Source: Clostridia bacterium (lineage in GTDB: Bacteria; Bacillota; Clostridia; TANB77; CAG-508). Taken from it: a stretch of 64,000 bases of DNA. The stretch lies in contig JAFWMA010000015.1 in assembly GCA_017510825.1 (NCBI GenBank), positions 23,707-87,706 on the forward strand, given 5' to 3'. The notes under the pieces were generated by a model. The model did not search any database, was not told where the DNA came from, and saw nothing but the letters and a program-made list of their open reading frames with translations. The position numbers and the translations under genes were made by a program. Positions 50,438 through 63,977 of this stretch are shown in pieces. Each line of letters starts with the position of its first letter. Positions within the stretch are counted from its first letter, which is position 1.

Positions 50438-50608
50438 TACTGAAGAGTTTGCCTATATCATTGGTGCCAACGACGTAGATATTTACAACTCGTTAGCTCT
50501 CTTGACGATTGATATAAAATCAATCAAGTTATAAGTATATTATCAAATTATTTTATAAAAATCAAGTGAATTTTGAAAAAGCTTTTGCGAAAATTTGTTT
50601 CTTTTCTG

Positions 50609-50637
50609 TTGCTTTATTGTAAAATCTATGTTAAACT
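50609..50637 (+). promoter_or_regulatory. sigmaA promoter of putative toxin mRNA
   Basis: TTGCTT-17 bp-TAAACT with extended -10 TG. Confidence 0.6.
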
Positions 50638-50712
50638 AACTAACATGGGAAATGGCGATAAACAGATGTGGTTTTGCCACCAATTGTACGAAATATCGTA
50701 GGAGAAGTGGTG

Positions 50713-50832
50713 ATGTTTATGGTTAAAGTGATACTATTTTTTATAATATCCTTAATGTTATCTTTAACATTAAACGTTGCCTTGACAGCAGTTCTATATA
50801 AGAACTGGGTTGATAAGCAACTACATAAATAA
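50713..50832 (+). CDS. Putative type I toxin, 39 aa MFMVKVILFFIISLMLSLTLNVALTAVLYKNWVDKQLHK
   Basis: AGGAG-containing RBS region, single TM helix plus charged C-terminus, antisense-RNA architecture; below ORF-track cutoff. Confidence 0.72.
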   Translation: MFMVKVILFFIISLMLSLTLNVALTAVLYKNWVDKQLHK

Positions 50833-50921
50833 AAAAAGCTCACATCTGTAACTTTGGCGAGTTAGGTGTGAGTTTTTCAAATCTAATCGGCAAAACCACG
50901 TTTGTGGAATTGTCATTTCCT
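50830..50921 (-). ncRNA. Putative type I antitoxin sRNA (~90 nt)
   Basis: Consensus promoter at 50928-50956; ends in hairpin 50837-50873 plus U-run; overlaps toxin 3' UTR. Confidence 0.6.
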
Positions 50922-50927
50922 ATATTT

Positions 50928-50956
50928 ATTATACACAGATAATTGTTAAATGTCAA
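50928..50956 (-). promoter_or_regulatory. sigmaA promoter of putative antitoxin
   Basis: TTGACA-17 bp-TATAAT. Confidence 0.75.
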
Positions 50957-50969
50957 CATTTTTAAAGTT

Positions 50970-52181
50970 CTATCCTGTTTTTTTGTATTTTTTATATCCC
51001 ATATAAGTAAAAGTTACTATAGCAATACTAGATATTAATAAAACAAATATTATCTGATTTTCCCCTGTTTTAGGAAGTATTGTAGGAGAAGTTGTTTGGT
51101 CACCTTTTGTTGTTGGACTATCTGAACTACCTGGATTTGTAGATTCACTTGAATTTCCAGGCTTTTCTGGCGATTTAGTAGAATCTTTAACATTCAAATC
51201 ATAGCTAGCTGAGTATGTTTTTCCATTATAGCTTAAAGTTGCTATTATTTTTGTTTTACCTACTGACAAATATTTTACAGTAGCAACAGCATCTGCCCAA
51301 CTTTTATCATATTCTGTTTTAGTTATTTGAGCAATATTTTCATTTTCTATTTTAAATTTAATATTCTCTTTTTCGGTTTTTGGAATATTTTCTAGACCTA
51401 CATTAAATTTATCCTCGTGATTTAGAATCATACTAGGTCCTGGGTCATCATAATAAAATCTAATTTTTGATTCTTCTGAACTATTATTTTCATCTTTAAC
51501 TTCTATATTACATGAAGCATTAATTGTTACTCCTTCATTAGTCTGATATTTAGCCGTTATAGTTGCTGTTCCTTTTCCAATACCAGTAACCAAACCATTA
51601 TTGTCAACTCTTGCAACATTTTCATTATTACTTGACCATATTACTCCTTTTGATGAAATATCTCCAACACGAGTTGCCATTCCTGCAAATAAAATTGCAT
51701 ATAATTTTAAGTTTTCGTTCTTTTTTATACTCGTATCTTCTAAATTTAACCCATCTTCACGACGAAGTGATATCCTATAATTTGTTTCATGAACAGTTGT
51801 TGTAATTTTACTTGTATAGTTAGAACCATTATATGTTAAGCTTGCAATTATATCTGTTGTCCCTAATTTTTTTCCTTTAATTTTGGCTGTAATTACAGGA
51901 TTAGAACTATCTCCATAAACCAGCTCTTGTATTTCTGCAATATCTTCATCTTTTACAGTTAAACTGATATTTTCTTTTTCACTAACAGGAATATTTCTTA
52001 TACTAACATAACATGTTTTTGTATTATACAATGTTAAAAAATCATCGTCTTCATAGTCATCGCCAAAACCATATAAAAATATTTCACTTTGTTGATCATT
52101 TGCAGCATAAGAATTTATATTAAATGTTAAAATTATCATTAAAATCACTAATACTAAACAAATAATTTCTTTACTTTTCAT
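50970..52181 (-). CDS. Ig-like (Big_2) domain surface protein, LPXTG-anchored
   Basis: Signal peptide, VIWSSNNENVARVDNNGLVTGIGKGTATITA Big_2 motif, internal duplicated domain, LPKTG + TM + basic tail. Confidence 0.88.
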   Translation of the reverse strand: MKSKEIICLVLVILMIILTFNINSYAANDQQSEIFLYGFGDDYEDDDFLTLYNTKTCYVSIRNIPVSEKENISLTVKDEDIAEIQELVYGDSSNPVITAKIKGKKLGTTDIIASLTYNGSNYTSKITTTVHETNYRISLRREDGLNLEDTSIKKNENLKLYAILFAGMATRVGDISSKGVIWSSNNENVARVDNNGLVTGIGKGTATITAKYQTNEGVTINASCNIEVKDENNSSEESKIRFYYDDPGPSMILNHEDKFNVGLENIPKTEKENIKFKIENENIAQITKTEYDKSWADAVATVKYLSVGKTKIIATLSYNGKTYSASYDLNVKDSTKSPEKPGNSSESTNPGSSDSPTTKGDQTTSPTILPKTGENQIIFVLLISSIAIVTFTYMGYKKYKKTG

Positions 52182-52313
52182 AAATAAAACTCCCTTTTTT
52201 ACTTTTGTTTTTCATACACTACTTCATTATTTATTTTGACACAAATCCCTAAAGTTTGCAAGCATTTTTAGTAGATATTTTAAATATTTTTGCTATTTTC
52301 TATGTTACTAATA

Positions 52314-53144
<831 letters not shown>

Positions 53145-53179
53145 CTAACAAAAAAGAGACATCAAAGAAAACACACAAG

Positions 53180-53245
53180 TTATCCTTGACATCTCTTAAA
53201 TCTGTTTATATTACAATATATTTTCTTGGAACAAACCCAAAACAT
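53180..53245 (-). CDS. Candidate 21-aa leader peptide MFWVCSKKIYCNINRFKRCQG
   Basis: AGGAG 8 nt upstream; overlaps the 5' arm of the terminator hairpin (53149-53197) preceding the recombinase. Confidence 0.35.
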   Translation of the reverse strand: MFWVCSKKIYCNINRFKRCQG

Positions 53246-53325
53246 ATAATCAACTCCTAGCAGGTAAACATAAGTAATTTACTGTTAGTATTATATCACG
53301 ATTTTCAGAGATGTCAAATTTTTAG

Positions 53326-53598
53326 CTATTTTATGCTGTTTATATAATCTTCTAATTCCGATAATTTTATCTTTTTTGCAAGATTGGATATATAAACATC
53401 ATTCGAATAGTTAAAGACCAGAAATGTAGTATCTTTTACAATCACTCTATGTGGCTCAATATAAGAAATATTGGTTTTCTCAATTTTTCTTATACTACCA
53501 TTAACAAAAGTGGGAGTAACCTTTGAGAACTCACATATAAAATCTAGTCTTTTCTTTAAGTTTTCCTCAAATCGTAGTTCTTCTTTAATTATCTTCAT
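53326..53598 (-). CDS. Hypothetical protein
   Basis: ~90-aa ORF with purine-rich RBS downstream of tRNA-Leu. Confidence 0.65.
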   Translation of the reverse strand: MKIIKEELRFEENLKKRLDFICEFSKVTPTFVNGSIRKIEKTNISYIEPHRVIVKDTTFLVFNYSNDVYISNLAKKIKLSELEDYINSIK

Positions 53599-53716
53599 TT
53601 CAAGCACCATCCTTTCTTTTTAGGATATTGGATGATGTTTTTTGGGCAAAGAAAAAAATCATCCAACTTACTTGAATGATTTTTAATCTATCTGTTAGTT
53701 CGAACAGATACGTCGT

Positions 53717-53803
53717 TGGTGCAGATGGTGGGACTTGAACCCACACACAGTTTCCTGTAATAGATTTTGAGTCTATCGCGTCTACCAATTCCACCACATC
53801 TGC
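53717..53803 (-). tRNA. tRNA-Leu(CAA)
   Basis: Manual cloverleaf: GCAGATG acceptor, anticodon loop CTCAAAA, long variable arm, GTTCAAGTC, CCA. Confidence 0.95.
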
Positions 53804-62537: not shown

Positions 62538-63977
62538 TTAATATAAATACCAGTGCATGGTTTTTCCTTCTAATACAATCTGATCTAGATTAAACATACT
62601 CCAATTATTATCTTTAAAATACTTATTATAAATATCTTTATTCTGTTGAGTTTCTTTTAATTTTCTATGCATAAATAATTCTAATATTGCTGCCCCACTC
62701 ATTTTCTCATTTTTTGCACTTATATTAATCATATCATTTATTTCAGGATAAAAAACACTTGAACTATCTAAATTATATATTGCTACATTCTCTACTTTAA
62801 TACCTGTTTCATTCTCATACTTATTAATTTTATCATTAATTTCATAAACTATATATTTGTCCATATAATTAACTATATATCTATTTATACCAATGTTTGT
62901 AAATTGGATAAATTCCATAATAAGTACACCAATAGAAATTGCGACAATAAATTGATTTTTATACTTTATTTCTTTCTTAGTTTTAGTAAATGTAGTAACA
63001 AATATTAATGATAATCCTACTAAACTACCATAAGCATATGAATTTCTAGGGAACATTACTGCTGAACTTACATTTTGAGGTATAATAGTTGCAATGGTAA
63101 AAAAATAAGTAATGAATAACATATATAAATACTTTAATAAATCTAGTGTCTTCTGCTTAGTACCTTTATCGAGCATTATTATATAAATTATAACTCCAAC
63201 AACTATAAGTACATAAAGTAATATAAATAAAATTTTCGGATATAATCCAAATCCCTTAAACAATTGTTCATTTGAAGCATTAAAAATAAAACTTATTGTT
63301 TGAATAAAATTATAATTTCCTCCAACTCTTTTATTTCCAATAAGCATTACTACTACAAAATTAATTATTGTTGGAATACCATAACATAAAAAGTAAATTA
63401 ATGTATTTTTTATAAAAAGTTTCAATTTATTACTATGTAGAATAACTGATATAGATGAGAGAGCCATGAATATTGCCACTGTACCCTGATATGAAAAAAG
63501 TGCAATCAACATAAATGCAATGCATAATCCAATTTCTCTTTTTTTATTATTTTCTAGATATTCATCAAAATGTTTAAAAGCTAAAACACAGGCAAGTATT
63601 GAAAGCATCATTATTCCCATTTCAGCAAATAACCATAGCTCAATTATAAATGGATTAATTATTGTTGCTATGGAAATAATTGCATTAATAAAATCACTTT
63701 TTATATACTTTTTTAGAATAATATATAAAGTATAAATTGCAAAGGTTGTACAAGCAATTCCAATTATAAATGATACCACATACATTGTTTCTGGTGTAAA
63801 TCTAAAAAATTGCAATATTTTAAATAAAAAAGCAGTTATAAATCTTCCGGATTTTATGAATTCTTGTACATATCCTAAATTTTCAGATGCAAATAAAAGA
63901 TAAGTATCAACCGAATAATTCATTTTCAAAAAAAAACCAAAAAATGCTATAGCACATATAGTAAATATTAATAACAT
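62538..63977 (-). CDS. Multi-TM GtrII-like glycosyltransferase-family membrane protein
   Basis: YSVDTY..SGRF, LFSYQG, PRN motifs, ~10 TM segments. Confidence 0.65.
   Translation of the reverse strand: MLLIFTICAIAFFGFFLKMNYSVDTYLLFASENLGYVQEFIKSGRFITAFLFKILQFFRFTPETMYVVSFIIGIACTTFAIYTLYIILKKYIKSDFINAIISIATIINPFIIELWLFAEMGIMMLSILACVLAFKHFDEYLENNKKREIGLCIAFMLIALFSYQGTVAIFMALSSISVILHSNKLKLFIKNTLIYFLCYGIPTIINFVVVMLIGNKRVGGNYNFIQTISFIFNASNEQLFKGFGLYPKILFILLYVLIVVGVIIYIIMLDKGTKQKTLDLLKYLYMLFITYFFTIATIIPQNVSSAVMFPRNSYAYGSLVGLSLIFVTTFTKTKKEIKYKNQFIVAISIGVLIMEFIQFTNIGINRYIVNYMDKYIVYEINDKINKYENETGIKVENVAIYNLDSSSVFYPEINDMINISAKNEKMSGAAILELFMHRKLKETQQNKDIYNKYFKDNNWSMFNLDQIVLEGKTMHWYLY

Follow-up and report, generated by a model that had tools for sequence, protein, structure and literature searches.

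Three described toxin–antitoxin (TA) systems of type I form the background to the locus analysed here, a short cassette within 64,000 nucleotides of DNA from a Clostridia bacterium (GenBank assembly GCA_017510825.1, contig JAFWMA010000015.1, positions 23,707 to 87,706 of the forward strand; hereafter, the window). In bsrG/SR4, the antitoxin RNA SR4 overlaps the 3´ end of bsrG, triggers decay and alters the 5´ structure of the message (PMC3834814). In par, the 5´-UH sequesters the 5´ end and protects RNA I (PMC7472228). The full-length aapA1 mRNA is translationally inert through its folding (PMC5416894). In Clostridia, type I systems are known mainly from C. difficile (PMC6563280). The cassette in the window, at positions 50609–50956, appears closest in its working to bsrG/SR4 and txpA/RatA, with a terminator and a 5´ protection resembling those of par and a closed mRNA resembling those of hok and aapA, and it departs from each of these systems in the features that define it.

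A sequence-only reading of the window had proposed an unannotated type I locus at this site. The plus-strand promoter, the small open reading frame (ORF), the hairpin and the convergent consensus promoter that it listed are all present where it had placed them. The comparative set consisted of about 200 homologous cassettes (199 collected units), in which comparison showed the ORF, the hairpin, the helix joining the two ends of the mRNA and both promoters to be kept and under selection. Because all of these are conserved in the homologues, they represent more than a chance assemblage. We consider it probable that the locus belongs to a new family of type I TA-like cassettes that spreads horizontally within an order of uncultured gut Clostridia and whose small RNA opens a clamp on the peptide mRNA and triggers its decay.

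The cassette is predicted to produce a weakly promoted, highly structured mRNA for a membrane peptide of 37–39 residues. A near-consensus convergent promoter and the shared terminator would define a small RNA of roughly 90 nt, which would be fully complementary to the 3´ region of the mRNA (hairpin, linker and 3´ arm, Y). The mRNA itself is predicted to close into a plus-strand 5´–3´ clamp between its 5´ arm (X) and Y, the latter being the template of the small RNA (Table 1).

The 5´–3´ helix of the mRNA

The plus-strand RNA from 50644 to 50925 folds with a minimum free energy of –105.6 kcal/mol (z = –10.4 versus shuffles), closed by a helix of 15 + 17 base pairs (bp) between 50645–50678 and 50889–50924. 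The end pairing described in the sequence-only reading was thereby recovered as a predicted helix that covaries and favours the plus strand. The reverse complement of the same segment reaches only –75 kcal/mol; therefore, as had been claimed, some pairs of the helix are G–U and available to the plus strand alone.

RNAalifold, applied to 72 units of all peptide types, independently predicts both the closing helix and the terminator. With this structure, 97.9% of the cells are paired compared with 91.0% in column shuffles (0 of 500 reached the observed value), and pairing drops to 38–51% when the partner is slid. Fourteen pairs are changed on both sides. Divergent copies carry double substitutions, such as ACGG/CCGU, GAAAAUG/CAUUUUC and, in the third copy of the window's own genome, GUGUGUUGCC/GGCAACACAC. 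Matched indels (TTTT/AAAA, TTT/AAA and TT/AA) keep the arms in register, pairing GUGGUUUUGCC with GGCAAAACCAC, GUGGUUUGCC with GGCAAACCAC and GUGGUUGCC with GGCAACCAC.

The strand preference extends to the whole family. The X:Y duplex is stabler as plus-strand RNA in all distinct arm pairs (136/136; –44.6 versus –32.0 kcal/mol). The aligned helix holds 240 G–U cells versus 6 A–C cells, with 98.3% of cells paired on the plus strand and 84.8% if it is read on the minus strand, and the polymorphic mismatches within it are of the G–U type 118 times (25 kinds) and of the A–C type 22 times (14 kinds). Pairing on the plus strand requires that some of the mRNA, at least, run on beyond the hairpin as far as about 50924. 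Given such read-through, the cassette displays the long-range 5´–3´ pairing in a full-length mRNA that is typical of hok and aapA.

The antisense RNA gene and the shared terminator

The minus-strand TTGACA-17-TATAAT (50956–50928) is the only 12/12 promoter match within the 2.6 kb scanned. Across the family, this promoter matches the consensus in at least 11 of 12 positions in 191 of 193 units, with TATAAT in 190 and TTGAC(A/T) in 183. Since the small RNA promoters carry 134 distinct spacers, conservation rests in the hexamers and the distance between them, and the antisense gene is judged to be under strong selection. The convergent, 3´-overlapping architecture proposed by the sequence-only reading is supported by the near invariance of this promoter despite its varying spacers. 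The mRNA promoter (TTGCTT at 50609–50614, 17 nt, extended –10 TGtTAAACT with the –10 hexamer at 50632–50637) matches the consensus at 8 of 12 positions in the window and at only 8–10 family-wide, weaker than the antisense promoter.

The hairpin between the two genes is asymmetric. The A-run that precedes it, which gives the small RNA its U-tract, has 6–7 nucleotides in most units (mean 6.5), whereas the T-run on the mRNA side averages 4.6 (range 1–7) and has two or fewer in 14 of 188 units. Owing to this asymmetry, termination at the hairpin would be dependable for the small RNA and leaky for the mRNA; in some copies, to judge from the U-tract, the hairpin is no terminator at all for the latter. 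From the weak or absent U-tract we infer that part of the mRNA reads through the hairpin. The earlier description of the hairpin as the small RNA terminator stands, and to it must be added what that description left out, namely that it also terminates, more weakly, on the mRNA side. Seven of eight stem pairs are changed on both sides among the homologues, and an alternative stem (AAACCATTC.../...GAATGGTTT) is found in some copies, including the third one in the window's genome. A simple terminator scan of the 2.6 kb did not call the hairpin at 50838–50873.

The predicted small RNA folds with z = –1.9 and has a free 5´ tail; set beside the mRNA fold (z = –10.4, with its 5´ end sequestered), this is indirect evidence for the stable toxin mRNA and labile antitoxin RNA that type I systems have. 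An antisense RNA gene able to pair with the toxin mRNA, as type I systems in general have, is predicted here by virtue of the cis-overlap. Membership in an Rfam family was rejected, as a permissive-threshold search returned only sub-threshold noise; the best matches lie far below the gathering scores (RF01823, 24.2 versus 37; RF02589, 22.2 versus 67). The match to RF02589, the Streptococcus pyogenes small RNA Spy779816 (E = 0.93; minus strand, 50832–50919), covers precisely the predicted small RNA, but a likeness in terminator shape is probably all that it reflects.

How the two RNAs relate

Because the repeats are inverted in the DNA, the 5´ domain of the small RNA is a same-sense near-copy of the mRNA 5´ end: AGGAAAUGACAAUUCCACAAACGUGGUUUUGCC and AUGGGAAAUGGCGAUAAACAGAUGUGGUUUUGCC, respectively, are near-copies and not complements. 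Both 5´ ends compete for one 3´ arm, a relation that is absent from the sequence-only account. Pairing of the small RNA 5´ domain with the leader or the start site, as in par or SprA1, was considered and rejected, since its duplex with the leader and coding sequence reaches –20.3 kcal/mol compared with –19.3 for shuffled controls (z = –0.43). With no complementarity beyond chance in these regions, the cis-overlap is the only pairing surface. It comprises the hairpin alone (about 45 nt) for a terminated mRNA; where the mRNA reads through, the linker and Y are added, for a total of about 85 nt.

Partition-function folding of 33 units indicates what Y does to the 5´ end. The 5´-terminal 8 nt of the mRNA have an unpaired probability of 0.10–0.18 when Y is present and of 0.65–0.86 when it is missing or occupied. 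Within the leader, a CCACC box (CCUCC, with GGAGG, in units encoding type D peptides) pairs next to or on the Shine–Dalgarno (SD) sequence. In the window, this box (50677–50681) pairs with GUGGUG (50707–50712), and between them lie a hairpin, UACG/CGUA (50687–50700), and the SD AGGAG. The leader hairpin covaries among units with peptides of types A to C (CACAAC/GUUGUG, CGUAAC/GUUACG, AAAGG/CCUUU).

A superfamily of small hydrophobic peptides

About 190 of the 199 units have an intact ORF of 34–42 codons behind an SD, and a few are frameshifted. In type A, to which the window copy belongs, pN/pS is 0.38 in the annotated frame versus 0.59 and 4.4 in the other frames, and the diversity by codon position (0.090/0.022/0.139) leaves the second position the most constrained. 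Types B and D (e.g., MIEAVLLEIIYLLLFGLVVETIIVFALIILVIILSK) use the same RNA scaffold and display the same pattern (0.303/0.185/0.328). By these measures the 39-codon ORF is evolving as coding sequence and is a real gene, and the coding signature seen across homologues confirms the peptide gene read from the window. Like type I systems in general, the cassette would therefore hold a gene for a small hydrophobic peptide, and this gene would be truly translated, as indicated by its SD and the constraint on its frame. The SD of the window copy (50700–50704) is spaced 8 nt from the ATG at 50713; an alternative ATG at 50719, which gives 37 amino acids, is the sole start in some homologues.

The peptides have a mean GRAVY of 1.5. 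Those of type A carry Trp and a charged tail, the window peptide being small, hydrophobic and partly cationic, with Trp. Types B and D stand out by extreme hydrophobicity, with GRAVY up to 2.5, and are net acidic. The third copy in the window's genome encodes MIESALLYIVYLLFFGLVSVTIVNVALIITLVVIIHKQQ, which combines features of type A and of types B and D; because of this hybrid, the two groups probably form one superfamily. On sequence grounds, this is a new superfamily of hydrophobic peptides of 34–42 residues. Its members match no solved structure in a PDB profile search. The ORF, queried in a protein database as its 54-aa GTG-started reading, matched only unnamed or "hypothetical" entries. 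No searchable paper contains the peptide motifs, and neither a paper describing the cassette nor an Rfam, Pfam or NCBIfam family for it was found.

Table 1. Features of the cassette and the segment upstream of it, in window coordinates.
Feature	Position	Strand	Description
Conserved ~150-bp upstream module	50461..50608	+	Sharp start at TGGTGCCAACGACGTAGATATTTACAAC; covarying palindrome ATTGATA..TATCAAT; likely terminal segment of the mobile islet
Peptide mRNA promoter	50609..50637	+	TTGCTT-17-TGtTAAACT; transcription start predicted near 50645
mRNA 5´ arm (X)	50645..50678	+	Pairs with the 3´ arm; takes in the extreme 5´ end; G–U wobbles favour the plus strand
Leader	50677..50712	+	CCACC box, small hairpin, SD
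39-codon ORF	50713..50832	+	Hydrophobic single-helix peptide MFMVKVILFFIISLMLSLTLNVALTAVLYKNWVDKQLHK, tail YKNWVDKQLHK
Shared hairpin	50831..50877	both	Stem 50838–50852/50861–50873, loop TTTGGCGA, A7 run (50831–50837), T5 run (50873–50877)
Predicted antisense small RNA, ~90 nt	50832..50921	–	5´ domain near-copy of the mRNA 5´ end, then linker, then terminator hairpin
3´ arm (Y) of read-through mRNA	50889..50924	+	Complementary to X; also template of the small RNA 5´ domain
Small RNA promoter	50928..50956	–	TTGACA-17-TATAAT, 12/12

Proposed mechanism

In the mechanism that we propose, part of the mRNA would read through the leaky hairpin and close on itself by X:Y pairing. The closed form would hide the extreme 5´ end, with the CCACC box and local hairpins masking the SD and the start codon, so that the message of the toxin would be stable and silent. 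The abundant small RNA would pair with the 3´ region, and the likely place for this to begin is the linker or the complementary loops of the terminator. This pairing would displace X and expose the 5´ end to 5´-dependent RNases, while the long duplex between the small RNA and the mRNA would be a substrate for RNase III, and the message would be destroyed. If synthesis of the small RNA stopped, the closed mRNA would outlast the small RNA and, once activated in some way, could yield a membrane-damaging peptide.

A more specific version, which we put forward tentatively and hold to be a good deal less certain than the general one, is that the antitoxin acts by mimicry and strand displacement, its same-sense 5´ copy taking the 3´ arm and unlocking the protective clamp. 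The RNA scaffold, rather than the peptide, would then be the conserved spreading unit, hosting interchangeable membrane peptides; several peptide types, linked by the hybrid copy, are carried on the same scaffold. Regulation would come down to a simple model, a competition between two look-alike 5´ ends. In either version, two known principles, a 3´-overlapping antitoxin and a 5´–3´ clamp on the toxin mRNA, would be joined, with the clamp arm as the antitoxin target. The individual steps of the general mechanism all have precedents in bsrG/SR4, par or aapA1, but, to our knowledge, no described system combines a 3´-overlapping antitoxin, 5´-end protection and a closed, inert mRNA. The scaffold of roughly 320 bp with swappable ORFs could also serve as a compact antisense-controlled expression or plasmid-maintenance module in Gram-positive anaerobes.

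Several observations weigh against a clamped TA module. The SD and AUG are mostly paired in every modelled state (unpaired probability 0.01–0.25), so the translation of the peptide stays unexplained by the model. Many copies, especially those of types B and D, have 6–7 T after the hairpin; in these, most of the mRNA may end before Y, leaving the clamp to the read-through fraction. The helix core was partly fixed by the exact-pattern search, which inflates its apparent invariance; the BLAST-derived set is free of this bias and has the same core. Type B peptides nearly lack the charged tail. Finally, no toxin family was matched in Pfam by the window peptide (E up to 1), five representatives (E up to 10) or 44 members (E up to 0.1), nor in NCBIfam by the window peptide and six representatives. 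The sequence-only reading, which could not place the peptide in a named toxin family, is borne out by these searches and by the one against PDB.

Comparison with described type I systems

The convergent genes, with an antitoxin RNA over the 3´ end of the mRNA for a small hydrophobic peptide, are shared with bsrG/SR4, txpA/RatA and bsrE/SR5 from Bacillus subtilis prophage regions (PMC3834814). In bsrG/SR4, the first contact is made via the antitoxin terminator loop, as is probably the case in the cassette; the antitoxin, once bound at the 3´ end, promotes decay of the message and alters the fold of its 5´ region, as would be expected here; and the SD is partly sequestered in the free mRNA, as is predicted here (PMC3834814). 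The overlap that marks the TxpA/BsrG–RatA/SR4 group is present in the cassette, where the predicted small RNA runs from 50921 to about 50832 over the hairpin, plus Y if the mRNA reads through. However, the cassette peptides are unrelated to the TxpA/BsrG toxins, with no Hol_Tox match in Pfam or NCBIfam. The cassette differs further in that its mRNA 5´ end pairs with the segment targeted by the small RNA, the 5´ domain of which is a same-sense copy. We know of no report of such 5´-end pairing with the target or of such a copy for bsrG/SR4.

The par system (fst RNA I/RNA II of Enterococcus faecalis pAD1; Fst/Ldr) has convergent promoters and a shared bidirectional intrinsic terminator with complementary loops at which pairing could start, as does the cassette (PMC7472228). 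An intramolecular helix hiding the toxin mRNA 5´ end and a structure masking the SD, both predicted in the cassette, are further likenesses, together with the presence of copies on mobile elements and in core chromosomes. Unlike the par 5´-UH, the element that hides the 5´ end in the cassette is a region beyond the terminator. The direct repeats of par (DRa/DRb) make the two RNA 5´ ends complementary over the start site, whereas the cassette repeats are inverted and the 5´ ends alike. Fst/Ldr toxins are recognized by a hydrophobic domain with PXXXG(C), a conserved Trp and a charged tail; the motif occurs in none of about 125 distinct cassette peptides, only one of which has any proline, and Pfam gave no match to any Fst family model that it holds.

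With hok/Sok of plasmid R1 and aapA1/IsoA1 of Helicobacter pylori (PMC5416894), the cassette shares a full-length toxin mRNA that would be inert through long-range pairing involving its 3´ end and, as we would expect, pairing with the antitoxin through kissing loops and subsequent cleavage by RNase III. The antitoxin genes of hok/Sok and aapA1/IsoA1 face the 5´ part of the toxin gene, and their target is the activated mRNA after 3´ processing. In contrast, the only conserved antisense promoter of the cassette lies beyond the 3´ end, and its antitoxin would be opposite the 3´ arm of the clamp itself, so that the clamp and the antitoxin pairing would be mutually exclusive. The cassette host is also Gram-positive, and the peptides are unrelated.

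The C. difficile modules, among them CD2517.1/RCd8 and CD0956.2/RCd10, belong to the same class and also consist of convergent overlapping genes, with toxins that are unannotated and without homology to known families (PMC6563280). Some of their copies lie on prophages or mobile elements and help to maintain them, as may hold for the cassette. Their toxins, of 34–53 amino acids with a tail rich in lysine, are associated with CRISPR arrays and with prophages, whereas the cassette was not detected outside its own order or in phage and plasmid collections.

Distribution, copies and spread

By BLASTN, the cassette is present in 140 of 201 genomes (about 70%) and in 41 of the 50 genera of the host family, with up to five copies per genome. 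Three sister families of the same order also carry it; about 190 genomes belonging to other orders of the class yielded none. Among species-representative genomes, an exact-pattern scan recovered at least 120 stretches, nearly all labelled as uncultured Clostridia-type metagenome-assembled genomes from the gut of humans, rabbit, chicken, goat and roe deer; among the exact-pattern matches listed are "Clostridium sp. CAG:440", "CAG:780" and Candidatus Scatovivens. The cassette is therefore common in a family of small-genome uncultured gut Clostridia, yet invisible to annotation. A mainly phage- or plasmid-borne module was rejected, as the phage and plasmid collections gave no match and IMG/VR a single exact-pattern match.

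The window's genome, a 1.43-Mb assembly of 24 contigs, has three copies. The second (contig 6, about 77950–78300, plus strand), just upstream of an FtsH-like gene, is 87% identical to the window copy and of type A; it keeps both promoters with different spacers, and its peptide has three substitutions. The third and more divergent copy lies on the minus strand of contig 1 (about 63190–63545). The window copy and the second copy share most of the 3´ arm core (AAAACCACGTTTGTGG), and because of this their small RNAs might cross-react.

In other genera, the cassette is 91–96% identical to the window copy, compared with only 72–75% for pyrG of the same genomes. The difference indicates that the cassette, or what carries it, is spreading horizontally, so that in these genomes the cassette serves as a marker of mobile islands and recent gene flow. 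The same identities, with the multiple copies in diverse insertion contexts and the inverted repeats that bracket the unit, could also be read as those of a small non-autonomous element, resembling a miniature inverted-repeat transposable element (MITE) and defined by repeats of roughly 33 bp, in which the ORF and promoters are incidental or secondary. This explanation is very improbable and was rejected on the plus-strand wobble bias and the promoter conservation outside the repeats: a DNA-level repeat predicts no bias of the arm mismatches toward the G–U type on one strand, and the hexamers of both promoters are conserved beyond the repeats while the spacers vary. Moreover, the repeats begin at the two predicted transcription starts and not at the homology edges, the ORF is under purifying selection, and no target-site duplication was seen at the variable edges.

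The pattern of copies also bears on whether the peptide is a toxin. Selection on the coding frame and conservation of the RNA establish that the unit has a function, not that it is toxic; the neighbours of most copies are housekeeping genes, and no toxin family is matched by the peptides. This would be accounted for by a small membrane protein that is not toxic, such as a regulator related to stress or to the envelope, whose expression is tuned by a cis-antisense RNA together with a structured leader. We regard this reading as unlikely, since the cassette is multi-copy, arranged in tandem arrays, patchy and near-identical across genera, all of which is typical of selfish modules rather than of a housekeeping regulator. 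The frameshifted ORFs and one copy that keeps only the small RNA gene fit the decay of a TA system, and the antisense promoter is far stronger than that of the mRNA. A horizontally spreading TA-like cassette remains the preferred reading.

Tandem arrays were observed at four loci (L031, L032, L027 and L016), with two or three cassettes about 500 bp apart, and some of these arrays mix peptide types A and B on one scaffold. At another locus (L048; genome G089, contig C7, about 128550–129650), a remnant retains only about nine codons from the end of a type B ORF, together with the terminator, the 3´ arm and the small RNA promoter. It is fused behind an unrelated gene and could be an orphan antitoxin.

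Genomic context

No conserved synteny accompanies the cassette, and this candidate was rejected: 209 flanking proteins fall into 177 clusters, the larger of which look, by sequence, like Spo0A, topoisomerase I and aspartyl-tRNA synthetase. The absence of a recurrent transporter or immunity gene among these neighbours speaks against an exported leaderless bacteriocin-like or signalling peptide whose production is regulated by an antisense RNA. The small size, hydrophobicity, partly cationic character and Trp of the peptide would suit such a product, and in one related island an ABC ATPase and an FtsX-type permease adjoin the cassette. However, the high hydrophobicity (GRAVY up to 2.5) and net acidity of types B and D are unlike known leaderless bacteriocins and no bacteriocin family matches, which makes this the least probable of the explanations considered.

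In the window, an 11-nt inverted repeat, CCAACGACGTA (50467–50477) and TACGTCGTTGG (53710–53720), the latter abutting tRNA-Leu(CAA) at 53717–53803, encloses the cassette, a gene for an LPXTG/Big_2 surface protein (50970–52181) and a serine recombinase gene cut to 272 codons (52314–53132). In a related genome (locus L107), where the same recombinase has 640 residues, a Mob_Pre relaxase and an ABC ATPase/FtsX pair come after it, and the cassette occupies the far end. The window islet (50461–53803) has no relaxase. This comparison makes the islet look like an integrative mobilizable element that has decayed and that carries the cassette distally, a position that fits a maintenance role for this lineage. 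The sequence-only reading had suggested that the module stabilizes the islet; this holds insofar as the present copy ends such an element, but most family members sit between ordinary chromosomal genes. None of the present analyses speaks for the anti-phage role that the same reading had offered as an alternative. A related recombinase was within reach in only five other loci, and the association with tRNA genes is weak (within 500 bp in 6 of 60 loci).

A 28-nt direct repeat (82% identical; TTGTACGAAATATCGTAGGAGAAGTGGT/TTTTAGGAAGTATTGTAGGAGAAGTTGT) links the cassette leader and SD (50684–50711) to the 3´ part of the LPXTG gene (51068–51095) and could be due to chance.

Upstream, about 150 bp before the mRNA promoter, position 50461 (TGGTGCCAACGACGTAG...) marks a sharp onset of homology with about 35 other loci; by a strict motif, this module precedes 21 of 156 cassettes. 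It may be an island end, an att-like site or an unrecognized RNA. Its left edge (TGGTGCCAACGACGTAGATATTTACAAC; in a variant, TGGAGCGGGTGTCGTAG...) resembles the reverse complement of a tRNA 3´ end, and the palindrome that follows covaries, ATTGATA..TATCAAT being replaced by AATGACTA..TAGTCATT.

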